This document shows, piece after piece, positions 1-61,654 of a stretch of 64,000 bases of DNA; position 1 is the stretch's first letter, and every line of letters starts with the position of its first letter. The stretch comes from an uncultured virus (IMG/VR IMGVR_UViG_3300037189_025930) (lineage: Duplodnaviria; Heunggongvirae; Uroviricota; Caudoviricetes): IMG/VR virus record IMGVR_UViG_3300037189_025930. One strand, written 5' to 3'. A program made the position numbers and the translations under genes. Below the pieces are notes generated by a model. It was not told the DNA's origin and did no database searches. It was given only the letters and a program-made list of their open reading frames with translations.

Positions 1-84
1 AAAATATATAGCCTTGTCATAATCAGCAATAACAAAACTCTGTATCTTATAGTTATTAGTATTAACACATAAATAATAATTCAT
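1..84 (-). CDS. Family A small protein, partial (runs off window)
   Basis: ATGA overlap with stop of 81..371; translates MNYYLCVNTNNYKIQSFVIADYDKAIYF, like family A N-termini. Confidence 0.7.
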   Translation of the reverse strand, partial: MNYYLCVNTNNYKIQSFVIADYDKAIYF

Positions 85-371
85 ATCAAATACTCTTGTA
101 ATCCAAATGAAATTAAAACTTTATTAAAATCCTGTTGACAAAAATGTTTACCATAATCACTTCTTAAAAAACGATTATAAGATTCAAAATCTATTACAAA
201 AACATAATCGTAATTGTACACAAGATTATCAAATTTAATTTCATCTATGAAAGAATCTCCAATCCTATCATTACCGTTAAATAAAAATCCATTCTCTGAA
301 TTGAAAAGATGTAATAACCAAATTGTTTTATCTTTATATATATCAATACAGAGATAATATTTCTTATCCAT
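81..371 (-). CDS. Family A small protein
   Basis: YYLCIDI N-terminus, ends LQEYLI; promoter motif upstream. Confidence 0.8.
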   Translation of the reverse strand: MDKKYYLCIDIYKDKTIWLLHLFNSENGFLFNGNDRIGDSFIDEIKFDNLVYNYDYVFVIDFESYNRFLRSDYGKHFCQQDFNKVLISFGLQEYLI

Positions 372-468
372 ATATCTATAATATAACTAATAATAAACAA
401 TGATTAAACCTAATAGTATAGAATTGAAAAAGATTTATGTCCTCTTATAAAAACACAATAGAGTAGGT

Positions 469-715
469 GGGACAATGGGACCTAAATGAGCAGCGAGGAT
501 CCTAAAATGATTACTCTCTGATTTCTGATTTATGCTCCTTTCCTCAACGATTAAAAACGATTAAAAACGATTAAAAAAGATTACAGAAGATTACAGAAGA
601 TTACAAAAGATTAAAGATTCATTAAAAAGATTTGAAGAAGATTTAAATCATCTAATGAAAGTATAATATGGTGGGAGGGACAATGGGACCTAAATGAGCA
701 AGAAGGATCCTAAAA
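469..715 (+). repeat. 39-bp direct repeat, two copies (469-507, 677-715)
   Basis: GGGACAATGGGACCTAAATGAGCA-nnn-AGGATCCTAAAA, 3 mismatches. Confidence 0.9.
546..615 (+). repeat. Tandem 10-bp repeat, about 7 copies
   Basis: AACGATTAAA x3 grading into GAAGATTACA. Confidence 0.85.
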
Positions 716-845
716 AACGATTGGTTTTTATTAGGAATTAAAGGTGGATGGATTAGAAGATCAGAAGATTTCAGGGAATTGAAAGATTCTAGCGATTCTA
801 ATAGTAGAAGATCTTTATTTTACTATATTGTTTATATCTTATATC

Positions 846-1093
846 TATCTTATTGGTTGATTATCTTATTAGTAGATAGATATATTGATATATCTATCTT
901 ATTGTTATTGATTGATATTGATATATTTATCTTATTAGTTGATTATCTTATTAGTAGATATGGATATAACTATCTTATTGATATATCTATCTTATTAGTT
1001 GATTATCTTATTTGTGATATTTATCTTATTAGTTGTTATTGTATATTTGGATTGTTTATCTTATTAGTTGTTATAGATATATCTATCTTATTT
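846..1093 (+). repeat. TATCTTATT iteron-like repeat, 11 copies
   Basis: Counted by eye in a low-complexity, strand-biased tract. Confidence 0.8.
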
Positions 1094-1108
1094 CTGAGAG
1101 ACGATATT

Positions 1109-1196
1109 AGGAAAGGAGCATAAAGTTTTGGTGACAATCATCGAGAAAGGAGCATACAATTTAAGGTTAAGGAAAGGAGCATAAAGTTTTGGTGAC
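1109..1196 (+). repeat. AGGAAAGGAGCATA repeats; 27-bp direct repeat at 1109-1135 and 1170-1196
   Basis: Core also at 1145; inverted copy at 529-544; hairpin pair at 2086-2126. Confidence 0.85.
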
Positions 1197-1237
1197 GATC
1201 ATAAGATTTTATTTGGATTAGTTTTGAAACTGTTTTC

Positions 1238-1254
1238 TTTTTAGGTTTGTACAT
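1238..1254 (+). promoter_or_regulatory. Extended early-type promoter motif
   Basis: TTTTTAGGTTTGTACAT upstream of AGGAG and ATG 1310. Confidence 0.6.
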
Positions 1255-2124: not shown

Positions 2125-2418
2125 TTAAATGATATATTCTTCTAGTTTCATGTTCATTAAGACTTCGTTGATGTGCTTATTGATTACAGTCGTTAGATTA
2201 GTGTGTAAGATTTTTTGTACGTGTTCTAGGGAAGGGATGGGAACGTGACGATTTTTATAGACGAAGAGATGTTTAGATAGCATAGTTTCTGGATGAGACT
2301 CGATACGATCACCAATAAAAAGATCACCGCAATATTCGATGTTTTTATCTTCGTTCATTACTGTACATGATATAACGATATTTTTTGAATCTAGTCCAAA
2401 GGTGAGATGATAGTTCAT
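2125..2418 (-). CDS. Family A small protein
   Basis: YCGD..IGD motif, ends LEEYII. Confidence 0.85.
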   Translation of the reverse strand: MNYHLTFGLDSKNIVISCTVMNEDKNIEYCGDLFIGDRIESHPETMLSKHLFVYKNRHVPIPSLEHVQKILHTNLTTVINKHINEVLMNMKLEEYII

Positions 2419-2711
2419 ATGATATATTCCTGAAGATTTAGTTCGTATAAGATTTCTTGATATTTTTTGTTTTTAATAGAATTAAAATTCATGTTCAATA
2501 GATGATCAATTTGATTCTGATCAGAGATTGGTATAATTATACTTTCAGTAGCGAACATGCTAACTGGACGTGCAATAGATCCATTGTGTGGTAGAATACT
2601 TTTACCAATAATTTGATCACCACAATACACGATACATTTTTTTTTATCTAATATCGTAAAAGATACTATAGTGTCATTTTTATTAATATCAATACAGAGA
2701 TATGTATTCAT
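2415..2711 (-). CDS. Family A small protein
   Basis: ATGA-coupled, ends LQEYII. Confidence 0.85.
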   Translation of the reverse strand: MNTYLCIDINKNDTIVSFTILDKKKCIVYCGDQIIGKSILPHNGSIARPVSMFATESIIIPISDQNQIDHLLNMNFNSIKNKKYQEILYELNLQEYII

Positions 2712-3007
2712 AGTAGTTGCTCCTGTAGTTGTAGAAGTTCTAAAACTTCTCGATATTGTTTACTTCTAATAGATTGAAAATTGATAGATAGCATCTCGTT
2801 AAAGATATCATTATCGTATATATAGATATAGATATGTTTGTTACTAAAAAAGTCGTGGATAGGTTGCGGTGAACTTTCTAGTAATCGAAGATGATAGTCA
2901 CCAATAATATTGTTTCCACAATATTTAATTTCTTTATCTAAATCTACTAATACGATGCAATTGATTTGATCTCTATCATTAAGACCAAAGTAAATATATT
3001 TTTTCAT
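2708..3007 (-). CDS. Family A small protein
   Basis: ATGA-coupled, ends LQEQLL. Confidence 0.85.
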   Translation of the reverse strand: MKKYIYFGLNDRDQINCIVLVDLDKEIKYCGNNIIGDYHLRLLESSPQPIHDFFSNKHIYIYIYDNDIFNEMLSINFQSIRSKQYREVLELLQLQEQLL

Positions 3008-3324
3008 ATTAGTTCCTCCTCTATTCCTAGGATTGTAATTATTTCAGATATATTCTTACCACTGATTTCTTGCCAATTAAGATTTAAGATTTTATTGACG
3101 ATTATTTGATTTTGAAGTCTCACAAAGAGATGATTATTAGGTATATATTCAACTGTCTTTTTTAAGTAGAAATTATTCATGTTATATTTATATTGATCTT
3201 TAATTTTAATAGTTCCAAAATATTTAATCTTTTTATTGTTATCTATTACATGTAAACTGGATATAGTGTTATTATCATATAAGAGAATGATAAGATAAAT
3301 TTGAATAGAGTTCATAGTTGCCAT
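3004..3324 (-). CDS. Family A small protein
   Basis: IKYFG..KIKD, ends IEEELI. Confidence 0.85.
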   Translation of the reverse strand: MATMNSIQIYLIILLYDNNTISSLHVIDNNKKIKYFGTIKIKDQYKYNMNNFYLKKTVEYIPNNHLFVRLQNQIIVNKILNLNWQEISGKNISEIITILGIEEELI

Positions 3325-3325
3325 C

Positions 3326-3628
3326 TCATATTAAGTGTTCTGATAAAAATGATTGTTCTAAAAAAGAACTCAATTTAGTAAGGTGAATCTTGTTAAAATT
3401 AAGATTTAAAATTTGTTCTGCTAAATCATTAGAGTTAAAGTAAAGATAAAAATCAGATCCTAATTTCATTTCATTTTGTTCTTGAGAGATAACTCCGATG
3501 CTATATTGATTATCTCTAATTTTTTCACATCCACAATATTTAATTTTTTGTTCAAGGTCTAAAAGAGCCATACCAGTGATTTTTTCTTTTTGACTTAAAA
3601 GAGTATTAATTGTCATTAACCATCTCAT
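3326..3628 (-). CDS. Family A small protein
   Basis: IKYCG..KIRD, ends LSEHLI. Confidence 0.85.
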   Translation of the reverse strand: MRWLMTINTLLSQKEKITGMALLDLEQKIKYCGCEKIRDNQYSIGVISQEQNEMKLGSDFYLYFNSNDLAEQILNLNFNKIHLTKLSSFLEQSFLSEHLI

Positions 3629-3915
3629 ATTAAATGTTCTCCTAAATTAAATTTAATTAAAGCTCGTTGTAATTTCATTAAATCAATATCCTTATATTCA
3701 GTGTTCAATATTTTTTGAATTATATTTTCATCTCTAATATGAAGAGAAAAACGAAAAGAATTAACAAATGACCAAATGTCTGTTTGCTTTAAAATTGATT
3801 TTCTATCTTTTATTTTTAAGTATCCCCAATATCGAATACACTCTTGAGTATCTGCTACATTAAAGCAAGTGATATAAGAATCATTATCCATATCAGCAAC
3901 TATCCACCACCTCAT
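3625..3915 (-). CDS. Family A small protein
   Basis: ATGA-coupled, ends LGEHLI. Confidence 0.85.
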   Translation of the reverse strand: MRWWIVADMDNDSYITCFNVADTQECIRYWGYLKIKDRKSILKQTDIWSFVNSFRFSLHIRDENIIQKILNTEYKDIDLMKLQRALIKFNLGEHLI

Positions 3916-4235
3916 ATTAGATACTCCACAAGATTTAGATTTTTTAATGCATCATTAATATGTTTACCTTGTATAAGATCACTTCTTGTATTAATTAAGT
4001 TATTAAATAATAGATCATCATTTAATCTAATAACGAAAGGTTTATATTTTTCTATAACTGAAAATACACCTTTTTCTAAAAGACTTATCATGTTGTTTAC
4101 ATCACTTAAATGATATTCATAATCTTTAGGACGACTTCTTCCAGAATATTCTATTCTTTTTTCGCAATCAATAGAAATAAAAGAAATAACTTTTGAATTG
4201 AGATTGTTTAGGCCAAAGCAAATAAAATATCTCAT
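3912..4235 (-). CDS. Family A small protein
   Basis: ATGA-coupled, ends LVEYLI. Confidence 0.85.
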   Translation of the reverse strand: MRYFICFGLNNLNSKVISFISIDCEKRIEYSGRSRPKDYEYHLSDVNNMISLLEKGVFSVIEKYKPFVIRLNDDLLFNNLINTRSDLIQGKHINDALKNLNLVEYLI

Positions 4236-4537
4236 AGCATGTACTCCATTATAAAATTTAAATCAGATAGCGCTTCATTTATTTTTTTATGACAAATAGT
4301 TCCATAGTGAATATTGATTACTTGTTGAAATAGATTTTCATCGTTAAATTCAAAGCATATATTATTATTATAAGTTTTAAAAAGAATAAAGTGTTGTTTT
4401 GGGTTATCTACCCTGTTATGATGATCCTTGATAAAACAACCACCATTATACAATTTTTTTTCATTAACATCACAAGCTAAAAATCCAATAATTCTAGTAT
4501 TATCATCATTAAGATTAATAATAACAAAATATTTCAT
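4232..4537 (-). CDS. Family A small protein
   Basis: Start moved to ATGA overlap (MKYFVII), ends IMEYML. Confidence 0.8.
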   Translation of the reverse strand: MKYFVIINLNDDNTRIIGFLACDVNEKKLYNGGCFIKDHHNRVDNPKQHFILFKTYNNNICFEFNDENLFQQVINIHYGTICHKKINEALSDLNFIMEYML

Positions 4538-4818
4538 ATACAATATTCCCACATTGAATATACTTTATAAAACCCGTGTAAACTTAATCCTTCTAGATTT
4601 TTAAAATAAGCTTCTGAAAGTCTTAGGAAGAATTGTTCGTCAATTGGTATTAAAAGATGATAACTTGATATTTCAAATCCAAGTGTATCTTTGTCGTAAG
4701 TATCACACTCTGAATTTATTTTTTCACCTCCACGATAAATAAATTTTTTATTAGCGTCAATTAAATGAAGTACTTCAATTTTATTTTTATTGATCAATAA
4801 GCCTATATAGAAATTCAT
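4534..4818 (-). CDS. Family A small protein
   Basis: Start moved to ATGA overlap (MNFYIGL), ends MWEYCI. Confidence 0.8.
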   Translation of the reverse strand: MNFYIGLLINKNKIEVLHLIDANKKFIYRGGEKINSECDTYDKDTLGFEISSYHLLIPIDEQFFLRLSEAYFKNLEGLSLHGFYKVYSMWEYCI

Positions 4819-5135
4819 ATTGCTTTTTCCCATATTTCAAGATCTTGATAAAAAATTTCAAGACGTAATCCTTGAATAGAATCGTGAGGTGTATCTAAAA
4901 TCTTTTTAGCTACATCTTCACTTATTTCAAGAAATAAACTTTCATTATCTTGTTTCTTTGGATTATCCCAATAGCCAGACTTAAGGTAGCGAGATGCTTT
5001 ATCTTTAATTCTTATTTGACCTCTCCCATAATATCTTTTACACCATGGATCAGTACTATATATATATATGGAACAACAATTAACTATTCCAAAGGAAGTA
5101 TTAATACCGCAATAATATTCAATTTTACGATTCAT
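4815..5135 (-). CDS. Family A small protein (first of array)
   Basis: YYCGINT, ends IWEKAI; AAGGA RBS. Confidence 0.8.
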   Translation of the reverse strand: MNRKIEYYCGINTSFGIVNCCSIYIYSTDPWCKRYYGRGQIRIKDKASRYLKSGYWDNPKKQDNESLFLEISEDVAKKILDTPHDSIQGLRLEIFYQDLEIWEKAI

Positions 5136-5262: not shown

Positions 5263-5279
5263 GTGATTAAACCTAAAAA
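5263..5279 (-). promoter_or_regulatory. Extended early-type promoter heading the family A array
   Basis: TTTTTAGGTTTAATCAC on minus strand. Confidence 0.65.
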
Positions 5280-5440
5280 TAAAACAGTATAATTATATTA
5301 ACCAGTCGCTTAAATCTATCTTTAATTATATAATAAGCGCGTGAAAAAGAATAATATAAATCAGTTGTGATAATTTTTTCTACTTCTGGTTCCCTACAAT
5401 TTCTTGTTTCACATATTTTATAAGCTTGAAAAGGATTCAT
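5273..5440 (-). pseudogene. Truncated family B repeat protein
   Basis: MNPFQAYKIC..EKIITTDLYYSF then loses similarity; lacks the conserved C-terminus. Confidence 0.55.
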
Positions 5441-5634
5441 AATAATAACTCTGGATGATTCTTTATAACCCATTCTTTAGTTCTTCTAAAACTTGAAATT
5501 ACATGTTCAGCATCTCTTAAAATAAATTGATCGCTATCTGATAAGAGTTTATAATCCCAAAAAAAATAATTTTTATCACATTCTATTTCAGTTTCTTTAA
5601 TGGAAAAAGTCATGATTTGATAACGATAATTCAT
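5437..5634 (-). CDS. Family C small protein
   Basis: SFRRTKEWVIKNHPELLL. Confidence 0.85.
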   Translation of the reverse strand: MNYRYQIMTFSIKETEIECDKNYFFWDYKLLSDSDQFILRDAEHVISSFRRTKEWVIKNHPELLL

Positions 5635-6029
5635 AATAATAATTCACTTTCTTTTATTTTATTTAAATCATAATTAATCTCTTTTAAGTAATCAATATAA
5701 TCTTCTTTCCACATAGATTTAAGAATAACAGGGTGAGCTTCTTCAAGAGGAAAATTGATTATAAGTTTACAATACCAATAAGCAAGTTTTGGATCTTTAA
5801 TTATACTTTTTTCTCCTTTTTTAAATCTTCCCATTTTTATATCTCTAGCATATTGATAAGATCTTGTGGAATCTTTAGAAATTATATCTTCTCCTTTTTT
5901 AAAAGGACCTTTAATAATATTAATAGCATAAAAATAAGAATATTCTGGATCAGTAATAATGATAGGTTCTAATTCTAGTATTCTACGTTTCCTATAATAA
6001 CATATATAATACGCTTGATCAGGTGTCAT
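5631..6029 (-). CDS. Family B helical-repeat protein
   Basis: MTP start; GEx(II)..YSYxYA..IKG repeats; ends SELLL. Confidence 0.85.
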   Translation of the reverse strand: MTPDQAYYICYYRKRRILELEPIIITDPEYSYFYAINIIKGPFKKGEDIISKDSTRSYQYARDIKMGRFKKGEKSIIKDPKLAYWYCKLIINFPLEEAHPVILKSMWKEDYIDYLKEINYDLNKIKESELLL

Positions 6030-6301
6030 ATTAACCATTCTCCATATTGATCACATATTTGAATTAAATTATAATTAATTAATTTTAAAAATTTAATATA
6101 ATCATTTTTATAAGTCGAATTAAAAATAACTGGATGACCTAAATCAAATGGACCATTTAAAATATCTACGGCATATCTATAAGAATAAAATTCATCTTTT
6201 GATATTTCTTTTTCAAGTTTTTTTAATTCTTTTTTTGATTTATAAAAAAAATCTTGTGGCGCCATGTTCCATAGATATTTATAAGCTTCTCTAGGACTCA
6301 T
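6026..6301 (-). CDS. Family B helical-repeat protein
   Basis: GPFDLGHPVIFNS, ends YGEWLI. Confidence 0.85.
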   Translation of the reverse strand: MSPREAYKYLWNMAPQDFFYKSKKELKKLEKEISKDEFYSYRYAVDILNGPFDLGHPVIFNSTYKNDYIKFLKLINYNLIQICDQYGEWLI

Positions 6302-6323: not shown

Positions 6324-6518
6324 TTAAACCATTAACTCTGGATGATTTCTTTCTAACCAATCAAAACATCTATATAAAGATTCCATTCCTAATATATTCA
6401 CGCTAGGAGGATATATATAAACTTCAGTAATAGTTTGTATATCCCATTCATAAGATGGTTGCGAGTTGCTAAATTCTTTTAATATCTCTCCATCAAATAT
6501 ATAAGTATATTTATTCAT
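6324..6518 (-). CDS. Family C small protein
   Basis: ends WLERNHPELMV. Confidence 0.8.
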   Translation of the reverse strand: MNKYTYIFDGEILKEFSNSQPSYEWDIQTITEVYIYPPSVNILGMESLYRCFDWLERNHPELMV

Positions 6519-6718
6519 AGTATTATCTCTGGATATTTCTCTTTAACCCATTTAGTTGTTCTTCTAAAAGATTCATTGTCTCTCCACATGTCACTATAAA
6601 ATTTTATAGTTGCTAAAAACCACATTTCTGGTTTATTTGAACGATTTTTATTATCATACTCAATAATCATTGTTTCTTTTTTATTATCATCTTTAATAAT
6701 TTCATAACTATAACTCAT
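6515..6718 (-). CDS. Family C small protein
   Basis: Start at ATGA overlap; ends KYPEIIL. Confidence 0.8.
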   Translation of the reverse strand: MSYSYEIIKDDNKKETMIIEYDNKNRSNKPEMWFLATIKFYSDMWRDNESFRRTTKWVKEKYPEIIL

Positions 6719-6894
6719 AAAATTAACTCCGGATAATTTTCTAATATCCATTGACGACTTCTATTAAATGATGAATTAATAGTATTCTCTTTTAAATTGT
6801 TTTTAATAGTAGAAAGTAACCAAGATGTTTGTTTATTATCGTTCATATTAATTTCTCGTATAGAATTTTTAGTAATGATATAATCATAATTCAT
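6715..6894 (-). CDS. Family C small protein
   Basis: Start at ATGA overlap; ends NYPELIL. Confidence 0.8.
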   Translation of the reverse strand: MNYDYIITKNSIREINMNDNKQTSWLLSTIKNNLKENTINSSFNRSRQWILENYPELIL

Positions 6895-7091
6895 AACATC
6901 AATTCTGAATAATTTTGGTATAACCATTCTTGTGATCTTTTAAAAGAATCATTTCCATAAGGAAAATCTCCTTCTTTGTGATTAATTAAAGATTTGACTG
7001 TCCATTTATTTCCATTTAATAAATTATCGTGGTATTGAATCACTCTAAAATCTCCATCAAACTTTTCAATTTTGTATTTCCAATAATTCAT
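6891..7091 (-). CDS. Family C small protein
   Basis: ends NYSELML. Confidence 0.8.
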   Translation of the reverse strand: MNYWKYKIEKFDGDFRVIQYHDNLLNGNKWTVKSLINHKEGDFPYGNDSFKRSQEWLYQNYSELML

Positions 7092-7363
7092 AATAATAAT
7101 TCAGGATGTTTTTGTAACACCCAATTTTTTGTTCTTTGAAATGAATCTCTCAAATGTAAAGCAAGAAAATCATTTTTTGAATTTTTTAAAAAATTCAAAT
7201 ACCAACTCTCTTGAAATTCATCATTCAATAACTCTATAATTATAATTTCTCTATAATCAATGGATGACACTCTGCTTTTTATTCCGTTTTCAGATTCATA
7301 AACAAAAAACATCATTTCTTTTTTTAATCCGATTTCATATTTTAATTCATAAGTATAATTCAT
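7088..7363 (-). CDS. Family C small protein
   Basis: MNYTYE start at ATGA overlap; ends KHPELLL. Confidence 0.8.
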   Translation of the reverse strand: MNYTYELKYEIGLKKEMMFFVYESENGIKSRVSSIDYREIIIIELLNDEFQESWYLNFLKNSKNDFLALHLRDSFQRTKNWVLQKHPELLL

Positions 7364-7575
7364 AATATTAACTCTGGATGATTTTGTAATAACCAATTTT
7401 TCATACGTTTTAAAGAATTTAAATATTCATTGTCTTTGCTTTCAAAGCATTGTTCAGTATTCATAATATTTTTTAATCCAAAAATTGTGCAATGAAAATA
7501 ATATTGACCATTTTGAAATTCATTAACTTCTAAACCAGTCGCCACATTTTTTGAAATTTTGTAAGTGTAATTCAT
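7360..7575 (-). CDS. Family C small protein
   Basis: MNYTYK start; ends NHPELIL. Confidence 0.8.
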   Translation of the reverse strand: MNYTYKISKNVATGLEVNEFQNGQYYFHCTIFGLKNIMNTEQCFESKDNEYLNSLKRMKNWLLQNHPELIL

Positions 7576-7790
7576 AATATCAACTCCGGATGATTTTTTA
7601 ATACCCATTCTTTAGTTCTCAAAAGAGATTCATAAACTACTTGAACATACCCTTCATTATTTGATTTGCTATCAAATAATTCCCCTATTGACCAAGTCAT
7701 AAAAAAACCTTTAGAATCAATTTCTTGTATTTGTAGATATGGTCCCGATTTAGTGTTAATTGTTTTTATTATACGATAAGTGTACTTCAT
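7572..7790 (-). CDS. Family C small protein
   Basis: MKYTYR start; ends NHPELIL. Confidence 0.8.
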   Translation of the reverse strand: MKYTYRIIKTINTKSGPYLQIQEIDSKGFFMTWSIGELFDSKSNNEGYVQVVYESLLRTKEWVLKNHPELIL

Positions 7791-7978
7791 AGTAATAACT
7801 CTGGATGATTTTTTAATACCCATTCTTTAGTTCTATGAAAAGAATCAGCAACTCCCATAAATGATAAAATACTTGGCGCTGTATCTTTTTTCAAAAATTC
7901 AAAACTCCAATTTGCATTATAGATTTTATTTTCAAATTCTGTTACCGATCCATCTTTAATTTTATATTCATATTTCAT
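7787..7978 (-). CDS. Family C small protein
   Basis: MKYEYK start; ends NHPELLL. Confidence 0.8.
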   Translation of the reverse strand: MKYEYKIKDGSVTEFENKIYNANWSFEFLKKDTAPSILSFMGVADSFHRTKEWVLKNHPELLL

Positions 7979-8187
7979 AAAAATAACTCTGGATGATTTT
8001 TTAATATCCATTCTCTAGTCCTAAGAAAAGATTGAGAATGATTAGAACAAGTATTTGAAAAATATGGAGCATTATTTTTAAGTTCATTAATAGTCCAATA
8101 AAATTTTGTTTGTGATCTTTTCTTATTATGATTTGGAATTTCACAGACAGTAGTATTACTGTAAATAATAATATATGTTCGTTTCAT
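7975..8187 (-). CDS. Family C small protein
   Basis: ends NHPELFL. Confidence 0.8.
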   Translation of the reverse strand: MKRTYIIIYSNTTVCEIPNHNKKRSQTKFYWTINELKNNAPYFSNTCSNHSQSFLRTREWILKNHPELFL

Positions 8188-8417
8188 AAAAGTAACTCTG
8201 GGTAATTTTCTTGAAACCATTTTTTAGTTCTTTTAAAACTTGAAATTATATCTTCAATATCTCTTGAACGAAATTTATCTTTATCTAATTCATCTAACGA
8301 TTTTTGTAATTTATCAATATCCCATAATGTTCCAACCCTAGAACCATGAGTGCTTATAAATTCAAAAACACGAATCCCATTATTTTCTTTTTCTATTTGA
8401 TATTGATAATTTTTCAT
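8184..8417 (-). CDS. Family C small protein
   Basis: ends NYPELLL. Confidence 0.85.
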   Translation of the reverse strand: MKNYQYQIEKENNGIRVFEFISTHGSRVGTLWDIDKLQKSLDELDKDKFRSRDIEDIISSFKRTKKWFQENYPELLL

Positions 8418-8602
8418 AGAATTAACTCTGGATAATTTTCATATAACCATTTTTTAGTTCTTAGAAATGGTTCTCTTTTTGGAGAATCATCTGTATAAAA
8501 TAAATCTATATCTTCTTTTAAAGAAGATATAGAAAACGAATTGACATTTAATGTACTTTTTTCAATTACAAAATAAAGACTAATTTCATAAGTATAATTC
8601 AT
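8414..8602 (-). CDS. Family C small protein
   Basis: MNYTYEI; ends NYPELIL. Confidence 0.85.
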   Translation of the reverse strand: MNYTYEISLYFVIEKSTLNVNSFSISSLKEDIDLFYTDDSPKREPFLRTKKWLYENYPELIL

Positions 8603-8796
8603 AATAGTAACTCAGGATTATTTTTTTGTAACCATTTATATATTCTTTCTAAAGAAGTTTTTTCCCAAACAGGATTTTTAAGGTCTTGTTTTAAAATATA
8701 ACTTATTTCCCATTGAGCGTTTTTTTTATTGTCTAAATATTCTGCTATAATTAAATCAAGGTATTCATCTTTTTTAATTTCGTAAGTATAATTCAT
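8599..8796 (-). CDS. Family C small protein
   Basis: MNYTYEI; ends NNPELLL. Confidence 0.85.
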   Translation of the reverse strand: MNYTYEIKKDEYLDLIIAEYLDNKKNAQWEISYILKQDLKNPVWEKTSLERIYKWLQKNNPELLL

Positions 8797-8975
8797 AATA
8801 GTAACTCTGGATAATTTTCATAAATCCATTTTTGTGTTCTTAAAAAAGAATCTTTATATGTATATAGATGATCTTGATAACTATATTTTTTTAAAGATTC
8901 TAAATCCCAATGTATAGATCCCATAATAGCACTTTCGATTACTATATGTTTATCAATTTCATAAGTATAATTCAT
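8793..8975 (-). CDS. Family C small protein
   Basis: MNYTYEI at ATGA overlap; ends NYPELLL. Confidence 0.8.
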   Translation of the reverse strand: MNYTYEIDKHIVIESAIMGSIHWDLESLKKYSYQDHLYTYKDSFLRTQKWIYENYPELLL

Positions 8976-9175
8976 AACATCAACTCTGGATGATTTTCCG
9001 TAACCCATTCTTTTGTTCTATTATAAGATTTAATATGTTCACCACTAAGAAAATATTTTTGATTATTTTTTAATTCCTCTAATGAGAAAGTCCAATTTTT
9101 AAATTTATCATTAATGGTTTCAATGATAACCATAAAACCCAAAGATTCCTTATCAACTTCATAAGTATAATTCAT
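8972..9175 (-). CDS. Family C small protein
   Basis: MNYTYEV at ATGA overlap; ends NHPELML. Confidence 0.8.
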   Translation of the reverse strand: MNYTYEVDKESLGFMVIIETINDKFKNWTFSLEELKNNQKYFLSGEHIKSYNRTKEWVTENHPELML

Positions 9176-9378
9176 AACATTAATTCTGGATAATTTTTTT
9201 TTAACCATTCTTTAGTTCTTATAAAGGAACTTCTAAAACGTCTTCTAAAGTTTTTGATATCACTTTTAAAATCTGATATATTCCAAGCTGTTGAATCAAA
9301 ACTATTAAGAGTGTTTATTTCACGAATACGATCAAAATTATCATTTAGTTGGTGTATATAATTTATATTCATATCCAC
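9172..9378 (-). CDS. Family C small protein (first of sub-array)
   Basis: AAGGAG RBS; ends NYPELML; start may be 9372. Confidence 0.8.
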   Translation of the reverse strand: MDMNINYIHQLNDNFDRIREINTLNSFDSTAWNISDFKSDIKNFRRRFRSSFIRTKEWLKKNYPELML

Positions 9379-9447: not shown

Positions 9448-9660
9448 TCACAAAATAAGTTCAGGATATTTTTGAATCACCCATTTTTTAGTTCTTTCTT
9501 TTGAATCACTAAAGATTTTTAAGATGTTTCTAAAATCATTTGGATTTTCATCAAAAATTTGTTTAATTTCCCACGATGTATCCCTAATCTTAAGAGAGTC
9601 TTTTTCAACAATAAAAATTTTTTTATTTTCTATTTCAATAACATAATTATAACTACTCAT
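9448..9660 (-). CDS. Family C small protein
   Basis: ends KYPELIL. Confidence 0.8.
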   Translation of the reverse strand: MSSYNYVIEIENKKIFIVEKDSLKIRDTSWEIKQIFDENPNDFRNILKIFSDSKERTKKWVIQKYPELIL

Positions 9661-9971
9661 ATTAACCACTCCATTATTTGATTAAGATCATAATTAATTT
9701 CTTTTAAAAAAAGGATGTAATCTTTTCTATATGATGAATTAAAAATAATTAAATGACACTCTATAAATGGACCTTTAATTACATGTTGAGCATATAAAAA
9801 AGAATAAAATATTTCTTGACTAATTATTTTTTCACCTAATATAAAACGATCTTTAATAATTTCTTTAGCGTAAAGATAACTTGTTTGTGCATGAGTTGCG
9901 ATTATTTTTTCTAATTCTAAGGTTCTATTATTTTGATTTTTACATTTTTCAAAAGCTTCGTGAGGTGTCAT
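9657..9971 (-). CDS. Family B helical-repeat protein
   Basis: MTPHEAF; ends NYDLNQIMEWLI. Confidence 0.85.
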   Translation of the reverse strand: MTPHEAFEKCKNQNNRTLELEKIIATHAQTSYLYAKEIIKDRFILGEKIISQEIFYSFLYAQHVIKGPFIECHLIIFNSSYRKDYILFLKEINYDLNQIMEWLI

Positions 9972-10171
9972 ATTAAATGTTCTGGATATTTATTCATAAA
10001 CCATTCCTTAGTTCTATAATAGGAATCAACATAAGATTCTGGGTGATAACCAATATTAACTACGTCGCTTGATTTTTTACAAAGTAAACGTACTATCCAA
10101 GTTATACTTTTTTTATCATCTATAGATTCTATTACAAGTTGATCATCTATTATTACATAACTATAATTCAT
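9968..10171 (-). CDS. Family C small protein
   Basis: ends KYPEHLI. Confidence 0.8.
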   Translation of the reverse strand: MNYSYVIIDDQLVIESIDDKKSITWIVRLLCKKSSDVVNIGYHPESYVDSYYRTKEWFMNKYPEHLI

Positions 10172-11155: not shown

Positions 11156-11164
11156 CTCATCTAA

Positions 11165-16586: not shown

Positions 16587-16602
16587 TTATTTTTTTATCC
16601 TT

Positions 16603-56566: not shown

Positions 56567-56666
56567 ATTACTTTCTCCTTATTTTATTATTTGTAATAAT
56601 ATAATATACTATAATATATAATAAGTGTTTAAACCTAAAAATAAAACACTTAATATATTAAAACAC

Positions 56667-56945
56667 ATGAAAGAAAATTATTACCTTGGTTTTACTTTAA
56701 AAAATGAAAAAATATCATCCATTAGAGTGTACGATAAAAACAAAGGAGATATTTTTTTTTTAGATAATCCAAACGAATTTTCAATGAAAGGAAATTTACT
56801 TTTTTTTAAATTAAATTTAGATTTTTTTGTTCCAATAAATAAAGTTTTATTTTTTAAAGTTCTAAATTTAAAAAGAAAAGATTATAGAAAAATAGATTTA
56901 AAAACGTTTTTAATTTATAATGGATTAGAGGAGTGGTGTTTATAA
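56667..56945 (+). CDS. Family A small protein
   Basis: YYLGF..VYD..FVPIN; ends LEEWCL. Confidence 0.75.
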   Translation: MKENYYLGFTLKNEKISSIRVYDKNKGDIFFLDNPNEFSMKGNLLFFKLNLDFFVPINKVLFFKVLNLKRKDYRKIDLKTFLIYNGLEEWCL

Positions 56946-57230
56946 AATAAATTCTTCAAAATTATATTTTTTATAAAAATCAATTAAAAACATATCTTTA
57001 ATATCTCTAAAATCAGCTTTTAAAAATTGATTAAAAGTTTTTTCATCTATATTAATTAGATGTGGGTCACTTTGAAAATTTGCTAAATAAAACGATAAGT
57101 CTGAACTATAATCTTTAATTATTTTTTCACCTGTATATTTTAAATTGTTTTTAGCGTCAAATACAGATAATCCTATTATTTTTTGATTATCATTTATTTT
57201 AATTGATAATGTATATTCTTTTTGATTCAT
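56940..57230 (-). CDS. Family A small protein
   Basis: KYTGEKIIKD; ends FEEFIL. Confidence 0.8.
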   Translation of the reverse strand: MNQKEYTLSIKINDNQKIIGLSVFDAKNNLKYTGEKIIKDYSSDLSFYLANFQSDPHLINIDEKTFNQFLKADFRDIKDMFLIDFYKKYNFEEFIL

Positions 57231-57317: not shown

Positions 57318-58577
57318 TTAATCTATATTAAAAACTTTTGCTTTTTTGAAATTAGAAATATCTAACGCTAATTTTCCATCTTTGGGTAAAAGAAAGAATA
57401 TATTTTGTTGAGGTACTTCTTTCCAAGAATTTTCAATTTCTCCATCCGTTAATACTATTATATAGTCACAACGAATTTTTTTATTTTTAATATGTTCAAT
57501 TGCTGGATAAAGATAAGTACCACCTCTACCAACAATACCTACTTTCTTATTAGAAGGAGTATATTTTTTAATACTATGTACTTGAGCATCTACCTGAATT
57601 AGTTCGACTTCAGAATTAGTTGATTTACATAAGTTATCAATTTCTCCTAAAGTTTTAGAAATAAATTCATTACTAACTGATCCAGAAGTATCTAATATTA
57701 CTACTCCTTTAGAAGAATAAGTTTTTATAAATCCTTTAATTTCTACTCGATTCATAAATCTACGATTTCTTCTTTTTATAGACTCTTCTACATCTATGGA
57801 AGAATTAGAAGCTTGATTACGAATATGCTTTTTCCAATCAATTTTCTTAGAACGAAGTTTTTCAATTTCATCTGCAATATCAGATGGTATCAATCCCCTA
57901 CTTTTATTCTCAGCATGTTGAATTAATTTCTCCCTCATAAGATTTACTAATTCTTCATTTACTTCACCTTCGTTACGATCGTCTGCTACGTGAGGGTCAA
58001 TTTCATATTCTTTGACACCACTTTTAGATTTAACCCTCATAATAACTTTCGATATTTTCTTTCCATTGCCTTGCTGCGGATTTCCATTGTTGTTATCGTC
58101 AGAAGAACCGTCTTCATAAATTACTTTGAAAGAAATTTCTTTATCGTCAATTTTCTTTCTAAGAAAAGAATAATAATTCTCCGCAGATAATTTTGGTTCT
58201 AATCCAAATTTTTCTGGTAACATACAGTCTGGCGGTAAATCCTTGATAAATTGATTTAAAGCAGTATCTGTTGATATATTCCAGCAAAATCTTCTTTTAT
58301 TCTTTGCTCTACCTATATGATTAAGAATTATATGTAAAGCTTCGTGAACTAATATTGATCTTCTTTCTTTTAGAGAGTATTCAGAAAACTTTTCTAAATT
58401 AATCACTAAATTAAATTGACTTTTTGCGAAATATACCCCAGCAGGTGCAGGTAGTGTATTATCAAAATGTACTTTTGTGGCTGCAATTATGTGACCATAA
58501 AATACATATTGATTTTCTTGTCCCCAAAGAGTATTAGCCATTGTTTCTTCATAGACTTCTTTGTTGATTTTATCCAT
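57318..58577 (-). CDS. Metallopeptidase (HExxH) plus VWA-like domain protein (DUF2201-like)
   Basis: HEALH, WNISTD..N, ILDTSGSV, GRGGT, LTDG. Confidence 0.9.
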   Translation of the reverse strand: MDKINKEVYEETMANTLWGQENQYVFYGHIIAATKVHFDNTLPAPAGVYFAKSQFNLVINLEKFSEYSLKERRSILVHEALHIILNHIGRAKNKRRFCWNISTDTALNQFIKDLPPDCMLPEKFGLEPKLSAENYYSFLRKKIDDKEISFKVIYEDGSSDDNNNGNPQQGNGKKISKVIMRVKSKSGVKEYEIDPHVADDRNEGEVNEELVNLMREKLIQHAENKSRGLIPSDIADEIEKLRSKKIDWKKHIRNQASNSSIDVEESIKRRNRRFMNRVEIKGFIKTYSSKGVVILDTSGSVSNEFISKTLGEIDNLCKSTNSEVELIQVDAQVHSIKKYTPSNKKVGIVGRGGTYLYPAIEHIKNKKIRCDYIIVLTDGEIENSWKEVPQQNIFFLLPKDGKLALDISNFKKAKVFNID

Positions 58578-58747: not shown

Positions 58748-59905
58748 TTATTTCTTGTTGTCGAATTTATCTATAATCCTTCGGAAAATTTCTTTTTCTC
58801 TAAATTTTCCAGCAGCTGCTGAATCACAACGAGCTAAACCAGCGTATAATTCTTTCATATTTTCATCGTCTTTTTCTTTAAGACCTTTTAGAATAGAATG
58901 TGAAACTTCTAATTCTAAAGAATAGAAAAAAGCCATAACTGGAAAAGCGGTTTCAAATGCTTTATCTATTGTTGCAATAGTAGCTGTTTTTGGAATATAC
59001 TTTTTAAGTAAGTCCTCTCCAATAAGAGAAAGTTTTATGACTTCGATAGTAGAGAGAACTGGTTTTAGTATCTCCATAGCTTCGTCCATGTTTTCTTTCT
59101 TCCTATTCTTAATTTTCTTAATTGCTTTTTCAATACTTTCCATAGAAAGTGCTTGTTTTTCTTTCCAATAAATAGAAAATTGATTACCAACGCTTCTACC
59201 AATCTTTCCATTTACAAAAGTTTGAAGTAAAAAGAATTTTTCCTCATCTGCTTCTTTTTCAAGTTCTAAAACTTTTAGAAAATTAGATACTTTTACCCAG
59301 CTTCTTGGAGTAGGATGGTTGATTTCATTTTCATTGTTAGTTTTGAACCACAATTTATCTGGATTATCTGCTACAAAAGAAACTACTGTTTCATTGACTG
59401 ACTTTTTTCTAGCCCATTCAATCCACTCTTCAGTGTTTGCTTTCAATTCAATAGCTTCAAATCTATCTAAAAGTGCTGGATCTAATTCAGACACTTGGTA
59501 ATCATCTTCTGGATTAACTGCTGCTACTACTAAAGAATCTTTTGGAAGTACGTGCTGGTGAATTTGCTTAGATAATACTAACTGTAAAGCAGATTGTCTA
59601 ACATCTAATCTTGCTCTGTTTAATTCATCTAAGAATAATACACACGTTTTTCCATTCTTAGAAGCATCATAAATTCTTTGTAACCAGATTGGTGTACTCC
59701 ATACGGTATTTCCATTTTCTAAATATGGAATACCAATTAAATCTCCAGTTTCTTGGTGAGAAAGAAATAAAATTTCGCAATGATAACCTTTTTCTTTTGC
59801 GAATGCTTCTACTCTTTCACTCTTCCCTATTCCGTGAGGTCCCTTTAATAAGACTGAATTGTCGGATTTTTGACAAAGGTCTAATATTTTTTCTAAATTC
59901 CTCAT
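58748..59905 (-). CDS. MoxR-like AAA+ ATPase
   Basis: GPHGIGKS, DLIGIP, LFLDELNRA, LDPALLDRF, TPRSW. Confidence 0.92.
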   Translation of the reverse strand: MRNLEKILDLCQKSDNSVLLKGPHGIGKSERVEAFAKEKGYHCEILFLSHQETGDLIGIPYLENGNTVWSTPIWLQRIYDASKNGKTCVLFLDELNRARLDVRQSALQLVLSKQIHQHVLPKDSLVVAAVNPEDDYQVSELDPALLDRFEAIELKANTEEWIEWARKKSVNETVVSFVADNPDKLWFKTNNENEINHPTPRSWVKVSNFLKVLELEKEADEEKFFLLQTFVNGKIGRSVGNQFSIYWKEKQALSMESIEKAIKKIKNRKKENMDEAMEILKPVLSTIEVIKLSLIGEDLLKKYIPKTATIATIDKAFETAFPVMAFFYSLELEVSHSILKGLKEKDDENMKELYAGLARCDSAAAGKFREKEIFRRIIDKFDNKK

Positions 59906-59985
59906 TTTTTTCTCCTTGTTAAAATTAAATTTCTACTTAATAAATAAAAATTTCTAATATAATACTATACTTATTTACTCTATTA

Positions 59986-60074
59986 GTGTTTAAACCTAAA
60001 AAAATATCCAGTACGGGTAGTTTATAAATGTCTTTTTTTTAGGTTTAGTCACTATTACTATTCTTATATATAAT
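59986..60074. promoter_or_regulatory. Divergent pair of extended promoters
   Basis: (-) GTGTTTAAACCTAAAAA; (+) TTTTTAGGTT-TAGTCA-N17-TATAAT. Confidence 0.75.
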
Positions 60075-60080
60075 TGTAAT

Positions 60081-60404
60081 ATGAATAAAAATAAAATAAA
60101 CGCTTATTTGTGTCTTAATTTATTTAACGATAAAATTATTACCTGCGTTTTATATCATTATGTTGATAAAGAAAATTATCTAGTTTATAATGGATATTCT
60201 TATTTTTCAGATTCTAAACAAGAGAAAACCAAGAACCAAAATGATTTTAAATATGAATTGAAAATTAAATTTAATCTTTCTATAAAGATAAATAATAAAG
60301 ATCTTTTTGAAGAACTTTTAAAACTAAATTTTAAAGAAGATGTTTTAAATAAAAATAAAGTTGATTTTTTAGGTAAATTTAATCTACATGAATGGGTGAT
60401 ATGA
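60081..60404 (+). CDS. Family A small protein
   Basis: YLCLN..VYNG; ends LHEWVI. Confidence 0.8.
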   Translation: MNKNKINAYLCLNLFNDKIITCVLYHYVDKENYLVYNGYSYFSDSKQEKTKNQNDFKYELKIKFNLSIKINNKDLFEELLKLNFKEDVLNKNKVDFLGKFNLHEWVI

Positions 60405-60685
60405 ATTATTTTCTTTGTATAAAAACATCAAAAAGTTATTTAGATTCAGATTGCTTAATAAAAAATTATGTTCTTGTAAATCAGGAAAATACTGAAACAG
60501 AAATTTATTTTGAGAATGGACAAAATATCATTTCTAATAATCATAAATTATTAAATGATATTAATTGGGATTTTAAATTATTAATCAATCAAGAACAATA
60601 TTTTATAATAAAAGAAAATAATCTTGTCTTTAGAAGATTAAAAAGTGTTTTAAATCAATTAAAATTAATAGAACACCTAATATGA
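60401..60685 (+). CDS. Family A small protein
   Basis: MNYFLCI at ATGA overlap; ends LIEHLI. Confidence 0.8.
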   Translation: MNYFLCIKTSKSYLDSDCLIKNYVLVNQENTETEIYFENGQNIISNNHKLLNDINWDFKLLINQEQYFIIKENNLVFRRLKSVLNQLKLIEHLI

Positions 60686-60999
60686 CACCTATTGAAGCTT
60701 TACATAAAAGTTTATCTATGGATAAAAGAATAACAGAACTAGAAAAAATTATTGCTACTGATGCTGAGCAATCTTTTTATTATGCTATGTATATGATTAA
60801 AGGAGCTTGGGATGAAGGAGAAGAAGTTATTTCTAAAGATGCATACGTATCTTATTTTTATGCTATTAATATATTAGAAGATATTTTTGAAAAAGGTCAT
60901 CATACTATTTTTAAATCTCAATATAAAGATGATTATATAGAATTTTTAAAAAAGAATAATAAGTATGATGAAAAAAAATTATTACAATGGATGATTTAA
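60682..60999 (+). CDS. Family B helical-repeat protein
   Basis: MTPIEAL..LEKIIATD..KGAWDEGE. Confidence 0.85.
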   Translation: MTPIEALHKSLSMDKRITELEKIIATDAEQSFYYAMYMIKGAWDEGEEVISKDAYVSYFYAINILEDIFEKGHHTIFKSQYKDDYIEFLKKNNKYDEKKLLQWMI

Positions 61000-61016
61000 A
61001 AAAAGAGGATAAAACT

Positions 61017-61343
61017 ATGAAAAAAAATACTTTTTACTATTTAGACGTAATAAGAGAGTTACCTGTTTTTTATAAAATAGAAACAGATTTATCTTTGAAA
61101 AGTTTAAGATCACTTTTAAAAAAGCAAGCAAAAATAGAAGCCAATAGATTAGGAATTAAAGAATCTTATTTCAGTGAAGGTCAATGTGAAAATCCAGATT
61201 ATTTTACTTTTGATGTTGATGCTGGAAATTTTAATTATGTTTTTTCACTTCAAACTTTTCTAAGTAAATTTAGATCTGAAGAACGTTTAACTTCTAAACT
61301 TGATTTTATAAATATGGAAATAAACAAAGAGGATTTAGAATGA
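61017..61343 (+). CDS. Hypothetical protein, tandem paralog
   Basis: FYYLD..FYKIETDL shared with 61340. Confidence 0.7.
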   Translation: MKKNTFYYLDVIRELPVFYKIETDLSLKSLRSLLKKQAKIEANRLGIKESYFSEGQCENPDYFTFDVDAGNFNYVFSLQTFLSKFRSEERLTSKLDFINMEINKEDLE

Positions 61344-61654
61344 AAAACTTCTACTATATAGATTCACTTGATAATTCAAACGATGTTATTTTTTATAAAA
61401 TTAAAACTGATCTTAATAAAGATCAGTTAGTTAATTTTATTCATAAAAATGCTATCAATTATTGTGAAAAACTTGAAATGGATATAGAAGAATATCTTTA
61501 TAATCACGACGATGAATACGTTGAATTAGAAGTCCATAAAATAACATATCTTTTATCTTTAAGAACGTGTTTAGAAAAATCTGTTTTAGAATCTAAAATA
61601 AATTCTAAATTAAAATATCCTACAATTAATATAAAATCAGAATCTTTAATTTAA
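61340..61654 (+). CDS. Hypothetical protein, tandem paralog
   Basis: FYYID..FYKIKTDL. Confidence 0.7.
   Translation: MKNFYYIDSLDNSNDVIFYKIKTDLNKDQLVNFIHKNAINYCEKLEMDIEEYLYNHDDEYVELEVHKITYLLSLRTCLEKSVLESKINSKLKYPTINIKSESLI

Follow-up and report, generated by a model that had tools for sequence, protein, structure and literature searches.

Why should dozens of small proteins with no visible kinship end in the same few residues? The question is raised by a stretch of 64 kb (24% GC) from an uncultured virus of the Caudoviricetes (IMG/VR record IMGVR_UViG_3300037189_025930), which we call the window. An earlier note, made from the letters alone, had described a C-terminal tag, E-x-x-[ILV]-COOH, on about 64 of its proteins from three expanded families (A, B and C below), and had offered two readings of it: an RNA-level junction between overlapping genes, or a protein-level signal. 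We found the tag on 66 of the window's 144 open reading frames (ORFs; a greedy, uncurated set of nonoverlapping frames of at least 40 aa), while the same pattern occupies 1.9% of internal positions; the shared ending is real, and it occurs more widely than the note had it. What is conserved in the tail is its amino acids, whatever the nucleotide sequence, the GC content or the spacing of the genes; the stop codon must directly follow the motif, and tails are exchangeable between gene bodies at gene junctions. We read the tails as a protein-level signal that acts strictly at the C-terminus and would be recognized by one common receptor, a reading to which we give, from sequence comparisons, a probability of about 0.5.

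The tag in the window and in distant phages

The likeness is longer than four residues. Among the 66 tagged ORFs, position -2 (the last residue being -1) is L, I, M or F in 55, and position -3 is L, W, Y, H or F in 58. A-type tails and most singletons follow F-L-x4-[LF]-x-E-[YWH]-[LI]-I, family B tails Y-D-L-N-E-I-x-E-W-L-I, and family C tails W-[VLI]-x-x-N-[HY]-P-E-L-[LIM]-L; hybrid tails are also present (RNYGEWII, QYGEWLI). The last six residues are the lowest-entropy stretch in families B and C and tie for lowest in A, where Glu at -4 is the sole invariant column, in 19 and in 29 sequences. Position -6 is L, I, M or F in 19/19 family A sequences, and H or Y in 18/19 of family C, which has Pro at -5. 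The tag is absent from the Pfam-recognized enzymes of the window, as the note had remarked: UvsX, the gp32-like protein, the helicase, ClpP, two RNA ligases, PNK, MoxR, the VWA-zincin protein, M23 and FkbM.

We defined the families by BLASTP and profiles, with the last 8 residues removed from profiles and targets. With tails trimmed in this way A, B and C remain separate: profile-profile comparison found no similarity between A and C or between B and C, and for A and B the last 17–23 columns alone aligned (probability 2.5–4%). Family A has 21 firm members, all tagged, and two weak ones more (genes 49890, E = 1.5e-3, and 16040, E = 8.9e-3; genes are named by their first coordinate). All 19 members of family C are tagged, and the tail of gene 21533 is C-like. 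Of the 13 intact members of family B, 11 keep Glu at -4 and two have His (21706) or Gln (60682) in its place; a truncated fragment (5273..5473) and a weak B-like gene that is tagged (45114) come in addition. The division into three families thus stands, in that all firm A and all C members are tagged and no profile-level similarity joins the families, but the counts differ (21 firm A members rather than the 27 noted earlier). No window member of A, B or C reached the curated cut-off of any Pfam family. A scan of 55 of the 144 ORFs against PHROGs gave no match for A and C representatives; two family B members weakly match phrog_28193 (unknown function), the sole matches for the three families.

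Family A is confined to close relatives, and its tail is kept in 16/16 homologues (one with terminal Met). Family C has 90 homologues on contigs of up to 399 kb and keeps the tail in 90/90, a count that is biased because the search profile included the tail. Family B belongs to an old, widespread superfamily of helical repeat proteins without a Pfam family (5198 representatives at E <= 0.001). The tag is present in 13 of the top 150 representatives, and 11 of these 13 form a clade of short proteins (104–171 aa); the tail is therefore a lineage-specific addition, and the fold does not need it. The family B repeat, about 36 aa long, reads S-Y-x-Y-A-x-x-V-I-K-G-R-W-P-E-G-E-K-x-I (e.g., at 9657-11104 and 17373-20568 of the window), and the largest proteins of the superfamily reach 2253 aa with 27 repeats.

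The whole genome (record G001; 290,274 bp, complete, with direct terminal repeats) has all sampled words in common with the window, which it holds as the reverse complement, from 237,821 to its end plus its first ~11.6 kb. It carries the tag on 91 of 429 ORFs, clustered in a few regions: 34/38 ORFs within the first 10 kb are tagged and none between 50 and 120 kb. Outside the window, at 34745-37516 and 39820-40429 of this genome, ~12 more small A-like genes form another array; their tails read G-[LIF]-x-E-x-[LIV]-I.

We also searched viral contigs with an alignment of the VWA-zincin protein, which returned 80 loci; tag-rich loci were thus found through that protein. Tagged ORFs make up 12/24 in locus L006 (45% GC), 9/28 in L010, 7/30 in L008 and 5/35 in L013, compared with 62/1761 in the remaining loci and 1/20, 1/34 and 0/37 in the three lowest-GC unrelated loci taken as a control. 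Tails in the tag-rich loci read [YHF]-P-E-x-[FL]-[IL], as in family C. Nine loci, one of them the surroundings of the VWA gene in Vibrio phage phiKT1024, supplied a pooled set of 59 tagged proteins. In this set Pro stands at -5 in 49 and Y, H or F at -6 in 43, position -10 is hydrophobic, and K or R occupies -9 in 27; 18 of the genes end in ATGA and 41 are not coupled in this way. Most tagged genes in the distant phages end in TAA or TAG. With tails trimmed, nearly all 59 proteins are singleton clusters in BLASTP. The few recognizable tagged bodies in relatives are DUF7448 (L008:5239-5658), phrog_4400 (277–288 aa) and phrog_2251, and 0/18 tagged phiKT1024 proteins matched a curated family.

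In the whole genome of phiKT1024 (191,289 bp, 34.8% GC), 91/336 ORFs, in 86 clusters, are tagged, 75 of them with Pro at -5. The pattern [YHFW]PE.[FLMIV][ILV] occurs 42 times at the exact C-terminus, once internally in 58,634 residues, and never 1–10 residues from the end. A DNA pattern for P-E-x-x-(NTN codon)-stop, counted on forward/reverse strands, gave 87/3 in phiKT1024 (control 3/0), 85/6 in phage Va1 (control 1/0), 32/10 in genome G005 (control 4/2) and 29/3 in G001 (control 4/3); T4, Alteromonas AD45-P1, Vibrio 1.026.O and Bacillus BpSp were at control level. The canonical tail is hydrophobic(-10)-[KR](-9)-x-x-[YHF](-6)-P(-5)-E(-4)-x-[FL](-2)-[IL](-1)-COOH, which family C shows as N-[HY]-P-E-L-L-L, and families A and B in Pro-less form as L-x-E-[YWH]-[LI]-I and I-x-E-W-L-I. 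Its carriers, ~20–27% of the genes, encode small accessory proteins (mostly 60–140 aa) that are mutually unrelated or very fast-evolving. The carrier phages lie in a clade of distant T4-related large phages spanning 27–45% GC, and the cultured Vibrio phages Va1, phiKT1024, Pv27 and phiTY18 are among those that carry the tag; these four are close to one another and to the two VB_VaC phages, with nucleotide identities of ~92–96%. Independent genomes over this GC range, endings that are mostly TAA or TAG, and a strictly terminal motif together strongly support the second of the note's two readings, that of a protein-level signal.

Stop-start coupling as an overlay

The first reading starts from how the genes are joined. 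Within a tandem array, successive genes share the four bases ATGA, whose ATG is the start codon of the family C genes (MNY...). ATGA-ending ORFs of the window are tagged in 43/53 cases, the others in 23/91, so that 43 of the 66 tagged ORFs end in ATGA and 23 do not. If the signal lay purely at the level of RNA or ribosome, the tail codons would merely form the site where ribosomes bind for the next cistron, or the peptide, while still nascent, would act in cis on termination and re-initiation; either way it would have no role once released. A gene does begin within 15 nt downstream of 57/91 tagged phiKT1024 genes, and the Glu codon at -4 is enriched for GAG: in the window GAG is used in 23/41 coupled, 6/17 uncoupled and 3/8 near-coupled genes, against a genome share of 11.7% and 44/332 at internal E-x-x-[ILV] sites. 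Junctions have even outlived their genes. The GGAG-N8-ATG strings that the note had seen 5′ of 6301 and 9378 are present, and we identify them as relics of tail-coding junctions, which persist as leaders (6302-6320, 9379-9395) where the upstream gene was lost.

This explanation fails, however, as a cause of the motif. Shine-Dalgarno (SD) sites of the phage lie 6–9 nt 5′ of start codons, yet an SD core of at least 4 nt is found in only 15/43 coupled window tails (2/17 in family C), and the spacer codons in the tails are hydrophobic, not the Lys and Asn codons that dominate other C-termini. Coupling by itself does not produce the tag in T4, where (first 100 kb) the motif occurs in 1/31 ATGA-ending and 1/139 other ORFs; Glu stands at -4 in 6/31 of the former, and their last residues are mostly K, E, L and Q. 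Conversely, tails persist where there is nothing to couple to: in phiKT1024, 32/91 tagged genes end in ATGA and 59/91 are not coupled, no same-strand gene begins within 50 nt downstream of 21/91 tagged genes there and 20/91 in G001, and convergent and terminal genes of the window keep the tail. The uncoupled cases singled out earlier (2125, 45114 and the tail-to-tail pair 56625..56945 and 56940..57230) are as described.

Codon choice separates the two levels. The last codon is ATA, TTA or CTA in coupled genes but mostly the preferred ATT in uncoupled ones: the base has changed and the amino acid has not. The stop codon likewise shifts from TGA in coupled to TAA in uncoupled genes. Synonymous codons vary freely, whereas the amino acids hold at 45% GC. 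The comparison of GAA and GAG use that the earlier note had proposed, run in phiKT1024, supports the protein-level reading: GAG encodes the Glu in 28/32 coupled genes but in 11/59 of the rest, close to the 21% genome-wide. Glu is therefore kept as an amino acid everywhere, and GAG is tuned only where the codon serves the next gene. At ATGA overlaps, then, the Glu codon has a second use: as GAG it serves as a weak SD element. Stop-start coupling is an RNA overlay that does not explain the motif: GAG enrichment and ATGA coupling hold as such an overlay, but the sparse SD cores and the T4 control leave the SD version of the RNA reading largely refuted and a pure RNA reading, to which we attach a very small probability, essentially excluded.

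Junction chimeras occur in the window: gene 5631 has a B body with ELLL, gene 9968 a C body with EHLI, and gene 20556 a hybrid tail. As a general rule the tail does not travel along as part of the leader of the downstream gene; at most junctions the tail type follows the upstream body.

A proposed common receptor and its rivals

If the tail acts as a protein-level signal, a single receptor common to all carriers would recognize its invariant Glu, its three hydrophobic end residues and its free carboxylate, and the small proteins would form a library of variable bodies with a constant address, which might serve docking, localization, loading or timed removal. A more specific form of this proposal, which we hold only tentatively, is a phage address system in which one machine, most plausibly the co-inherited MoxR AAA+/VWA-MIDAS/zincin complex, reads the terminal peptide. 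The invariant Glu would complete the MIDAS metal site, and the machine would load, localize, activate or remove on schedule ~90 fast-diversifying effectors per genome.

Three proteins of the window are, from their context, no more than candidate receptors: a protein with a zincin (HEALH) and a VWA domain with intact MIDAS (DTSGS...T...D) at 57318..58577, a MoxR-type AAA+ ATPase at 58748..59905 and a ClpP homologue at 31213..31797, all on the minus strand. G001 and phiKT1024 share 11 proteins detectable by tblastn: the capsid protein, prohead protease, tail sheath, gp41-like helicase and thioredoxin as T4-type core or common proteins, one protein of 369 aa without a Pfam family, and the UvsW-like helicase, Rnl1, ClpP, MoxR and VWA-zincin. 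Conservation is highest for MoxR (38% identity) and VWA-zincin (30%). A metal-ligand role for the Glu would require a receptor with an intact MIDAS (DxSxS...T...D), which the VWA protein has; its residues D296, S298, S300, T354 and D378 and the zincin HExxH do not vary over 42 sequences. When 77 VWA-zincin rows are placed in a quick maximum-likelihood tree, with tags counted within ±10 kb, one clade of 15 rows (Shimodaira-Hasegawa-like approximate likelihood ratio test, 99) holds 8/8 tag-rich and 3/4 weakly tagged rows, and one of the 62 rows outside it has a single tag. A co-fold of VWA-zincin, Mg and a family A protein scored 0.27 against a mark of 0.32 and counts neither way. From these sequence data we rank the MoxR AAA+/VWA(MIDAS)-zincin pair, with Glu as MIDAS ligand, as first candidate receptor, albeit a doubtful one, and a ClpP-linked route as second and unlikely. 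A sliding-clamp model was also rejected, because the clamp-binding ends of T4 gp43 and gp55 (SLDFLFG, SLDFLYEAND) are unlike the tag.

Several observations weigh against a common receptor, or against these candidates for it. The VWA association carries an ascertainment bias because the loci were found through the VWA protein, phage ancestry could equally account for the distribution of tags over the VWA clade, no tag lies within ±10 kb in four of the rows of that clade, and the 62 loci outside it show that a VWA-zincin gene alone does not bring the tag. ClpP was rejected as a discriminator of tag-rich from tag-poor genomes, being present in the tag-poor G007, G008 and G010, and it was not found in the tag-bearing G005 (85% complete). 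The hub, such as a protease, into which the tags would plug remains a hypothesis: ClpP does not separate the two kinds of genome, and the VWA pattern has the alternative just given. Within the tag itself, a few members (21706, 60682, 14998 and 18366) have His or Gln at -4 instead of Glu, and tails have family-specific flavours that one pocket need not tolerate: in family C, L fills -3 in 17/19 tails and -1 in 16/19, and A and B tails, unlike C, have W, Y or H at -3 and I at -1. In G001, GAG is raised in uncoupled genes too (12/36 vs. 12.6%). The unrelated status of the families rests on BLASTP and hidden Markov model comparisons, and the narrow size range (~80–140 aa) and the alike predicted architectures of A and C leave room for a single hyper-divergent superfamily.

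The predicted structures point the same way. AlphaFold2 (AF2) gave family A a predicted local distance difference test (pLDDT) score of 88.4 and a predicted template modelling (pTM) score of 0.80, with five strands, two helices and a short terminal helix, and family C a pLDDT of 89.6 and a pTM of 0.77, with three strands and a long helix (43-57), after which P-E-L-L forms a helix of one turn (59-62). The two models share an architecture of N-terminal strands, a long helix and a short terminal helix or hook, and in both the tail is modelled in a short ordered helix after the last long one (last block pLDDT 88 in A, 90 in C). Such order is typical of a packed structural element rather than of a free linear motif, insofar as the models hold. 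The family A model had no significant match (Foldseek against PDB, best E = 1.5; VIA-align wide, best Z = 3.8; BFVD, best E = 0.022), nor had the family C model against PDB (best E = 0.35), where a missing match does not show a new fold; a search of the ESM Atlas with a family A protein gave a best feature score of 0.76, below lead level.

The main rival is a structural hook of a hyper-divergent superfamily, which we consider possible, though improbable. The helix-turn-hook formed by Glu and three hydrophobic residues would be part of each protein's own hydrophobic core, with no common receptor; most carriers would belong to one hyper-divergent superfamily of ~100 aa in which only the C-terminal element is still recognizable, and the element would have passed to a few other folds by junction recombination. 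The confident, ordered tails and shared strands-long helix-short terminal helix layout of the A and C models, the family-specific flavours, the narrow size range and the tail swaps at junctions (5631, 9968, 20556) all agree with it. It is harder to reconcile with the same tail on different bodies (the alpha-repeat family B, DUF7448 and the 277–288-aa phrog_4400), with the 137 of the top 150 family B superfamily proteins that have no tail and whose fold does not need one, or with the lack of A-C and B-C profile similarity. Moreover, a packed hook would tolerate extra residues, yet the motif is never found 1–10 residues from the end.

Two further proposals borrow from known phage and bacterial signals. 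A C-terminal degron, which is a special case of a common receptor, would bring about timed destruction of early accessory proteins via phage ClpP with a host unfoldase or via MoxR/VWA-zincin. Non-polar C-termini destabilize proteins in E. coli, and the tag gives a hydrophobic ending found strictly at the terminus; the 11 proteins common to G001 and phiKT1024 include ClpP, MoxR and VWA-zincin, and the carriers lie outside the tag-free stretch of 50–120 kb and adjoin replication and recombination genes. Like ssrA, MuA-type tails and the signals of tail-specific proteases, the tag is terminal, non-polar and position-dependent. However, degrons of the ssrA/ClpX type have a terminal Ala-Ala or Leu-Ala-Ala-like end, whereas the last residue here is I, L or V by definition and -2 is a large hydrophobic one in most tails; unlike ssrA, the tag is encoded in the gene and not added, its sequence is unlike the LAA class, the tails are predicted to be ordered, and ClpP does not track tag load. 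We consider a degron unlikely. Capsid targeting, in which the tail would direct small proteins into the prohead, where a T4-type protease would cut after Glu and yield an injected protein cocktail, is in our view very unlikely. The T4 capsid-targeting sequence is N-terminal, is found on a handful of internal proteins, and is cut after Glu by the prohead protease. The resemblance lies in the T4-related phage, in a short signal common to unrelated small proteins and in the key role of a Glu; genes for an S77 prohead protease of T4 type and for a capsid protein of gp23 type are present in both tag-rich genomes, and families A and B, with L, I, M or F at -6 and Glu at -4, resemble the T4 rule [LI]-x-E. 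Against this, the phage tag is C-terminal, the canonical tail with its aromatic residue at -6 and Pro at -5 is unlike [LI]-x-E, ~90 different cargo proteins per genome are implausible, the genes sit among replication and recombination genes, and T4 itself has no excess of the motif.

Gene layout, phage context and meaning

The tagged genes of the window lie in arrays and as scattered genes. On the minus strand, a family A gene at 81..371 (tail LQEYLI) overlaps by ATGA another A gene (MNYYLCVN...) beyond the window edge. It is followed by a tandem array of 10 family A genes (96–107 aa) at 2125..5135, all ending in E-x-x-[IL] and nine of them ATGA-coupled; the last (2125..2418), from which the AF2 model was made, ends in ATT TAA with nothing downstream. 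Next to it, on the same strand, lie the truncated, untagged family B fragment at 5273..5473, a family C gene at 5437..5634 (HPELLL), the chimera at 5631..6038 (B body with C-type tail ESELLL, formed at a junction) and a family B gene at 6026..6301 (YGEWLI), 5′ of which stands the non-coding relic junction TTGGAGTTTTTAATATGA at 6302-6320. An array of 15 family C genes follows at 6324..9378 on the minus strand (~60–90 aa, true starts at the ATGA overlap, tails [HY]PEL[LIM]L); it includes the uncoupled gene 6324..6518, which ends in GTT TAA, and gene 7787..7978, the source of the other AF2 model. A further, uncoupled family C gene at 9448..9669 (minus strand, YPELIL) has 3′ of it, at 9379-9438, a promoter-like motif and a relic junction, AAGGAGTGGATATGA, with the junction at 9379-9395. 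Four family B genes (tails EWLI) and one C body occupy 9657..11104 on the minus strand; the C body (9968..10180) carries the A/B-like tail YPEHLI. At 11105..11165, again on the minus strand and 5′ of the first of these B genes, a relic family B 3′ end is preserved (SFLKSINYDLNEISE, then stop, LM, stop), with a TGG to TAG mutation.

Further along the minus strand are an unrelated body at 14998..15369 with the variant tail DNPHLII, in which His replaces Glu, and a family C gene at 15333..15533 (HPELLI). Dispersed tagged genes, also on the minus strand, extend over 16040..22086: 16040 (EEYII, the weak family A match), 17373 (family B, 297 aa, SEFLI), 18366 (a phrog_1987 body with variant tail HHLI), 18748 (family B, SEYMI, with its own SD after it), 19215 (EEHLI), 19499 (family A), 19859 and 20170 (both family B), 20556 (the hybrid tail NYGEWII), 21533 (HSELII) and 21706 (family B, variant SHQLI). 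Plus-strand genes at 33568..34268 comprise 33568 (KAELLI), coupled to 33933 (family A, EEWII), which ends in ATT TAA and whose next gene has a separate SD. An uncoupled family A gene lies at 37241..37549 (minus strand, IEWSI), and the weak B-like gene, with one repeat, at 45114..45434 (minus strand, FQEHLI), ending in ATT TAA and convergent with Rnl2. Between 49890 and 54817 tagged genes are dispersed on the plus strand (49890, 50922 of family A, 51327, 51665, 52054 of family A) and on the minus strand (53222 of family A, 53500, 53775 of family B, 54521). The tail-to-tail family A pair, 56625..56945 on the plus and 56940..57230 on the minus strand, overlaps by six bases (56940-56945), the palindrome TTATAA, and both genes end in L-stop. 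A plus-strand array at 60081..61654 holds 60081 (family A, HEWVI), 60392 (family A, IEHLI) and 60682 (family B, variant LQWMI), and in its 3′ part 60987, without a tag (ending EDLE), and the paralogue 61340 (SESLI). Natural pairs with and without the tail are thus available: 61340..61654 and 60987..61343, and likewise the phrog_1987 paralogues 18366-18737 and 34284-34628, of which the first alone has a tail-like end (CFLHHLI) and the second ends in NFKKL.

Sixteen copies of AGGTTTA[AT]ACA[TC], against 2 expected, are spread over the window (400-411, 1243-1254, 9427-9438, 11354-11365, 18311-18322, 20812-20823, 22132-22143, 33474-33485, 33509-33520, 45491-45502, 49485-49496, 50880-50891, 52404-52415, 54417-54428, 56625-56636 and 59986-59997). 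They are mostly intergenic, lie 5′ of the next operon in the same orientation and are followed by an AT-rich, -10-like box. The element is probably an early or middle promoter of the phage that drives tagged arrays as well as enzymes (MoxR, Rnl1). In L006 (8526-13086) and L008 (11622-16140), tagged small genes are interleaved with conserved genes (primase, phrog_2135; a rIIA-like GHKL ATPase; MoxR; VWA-zincin; ThyX; dUTPase), an arrangement to be expected where accessory genes have come to lie between core genes by insertion.

The capsid protein, prohead protease (S77), tail sheath and gp41-like helicase of G001 are T4-type, and the window carries T4-type replication and repair genes (UvsX, gp32-like, UvsW-like helicase, RNA ligases 1 and 2, PNK); its Pfam-recognized genes also include ClpP, the MoxR-type AAA+ ATPase, zincin-VWA, an M23 peptidase and FkbM. 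No tRNA genes were found in it. There is no close isolated phage: UvsX and the helicase are <32% identical to anything in the phage collection, megablast of positions 1-12000 against phages gave no useful match, and tblastn of one family B protein against phages gave none. Searches of viral contigs with UvsX or a B protein and scans of metagenomes yielded no useful close-relative DNA, and a degenerate junction pattern found nothing useful in viral contigs. Among the other genes of the window, an adjacent pair of paralogues of unknown family at 41418-43762 (387 and 397 aa, both ending ...GDSPDKW..) is related to 40031..41317 and 62866..63579, and auxiliary genes include a match to phrog_3704 ('ferredoxin', E = 6e-57) at 24860-25483, an Lcl_C/FGE-sulfatase-like fragment at 21188-21466 and an FkbM-type methyltransferase at 26669-27340.

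Strictly C-terminal signals read through the carboxylate are known elsewhere: PTS1 (-SKL), KDEL, the -EEVD of Hsp70/90 with its TPR clamps, and class II PDZ ligands (hydrophobic-x-hydrophobic-COOH). The phage tag is like them in being very short, at the extreme C-terminus and on many unrelated carriers, with an acidic residue before a hydrophobic end. It is unlike them, eukaryotic or periplasmic systems with known receptors as they are, in its sequence and in its predicted order. Class II PDZ ligands have a hydrophobic or aromatic residue at -3, a hydrophobic last residue and a free carboxylate, a pattern that the tag fits at both positions, although fitting the pattern does not by itself make it such a ligand; a scan of the 144 window ORFs, the part of the genome covered, detected no PDZ or TPR family (E <= 0.01). 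The ankyrin-repeat/PRANC (F-box-like) libraries of poxviruses also combine expanded, fast-evolving families, a variable body and a constant C-terminal element, and family B, too, is a helical repeat protein; unlike there, the constant part in the phage is ~6–10 residues and not a domain, and spans unrelated folds. ATGA coupling with an SD in the upstream gene resembles what is seen at the 43 coupled window genes with their bias to GAG, but plain coupling leaves the hydrophobic residues, the uncoupled genes and the conservation across GC regimes unexplained. Full-text searches for tail and repeat peptides and for the concept, in literature outside subscription journals, found no published description, and in the main texts of the genome papers on phiTY18 and Pv27 the words 'C-terminal' and 'motif' do not occur.

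For the carrier phages, the shared terminal peptide provides a common handle on the ~20–27% of genes that are otherwise 'hypothetical' small proteins without a family. The tagged set can be recognized in new genomes from sequence alone (85–87 hits of the DNA pattern in carriers vs. control level), and one bait, the last 10–12 residues, could fish the receptor and enrich the whole set; a bench test is feasible because the cultured Vibrio phages Va1, phiKT1024, Pv27 and phiTY18 carry the tag. The coupled junctions are a clean natural case of dual coding, with a protein signal and a ribosome-binding element on the same codon. If a single receptor exists, it would be a new organizing principle for phage accessory proteomes and may give a function to the MoxR/VWA pairs that are widespread in marine phages. 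The address system, if true, would give bacterial viruses an equivalent of signals of the PTS1/KDEL type or of viral F-box adaptor libraries.

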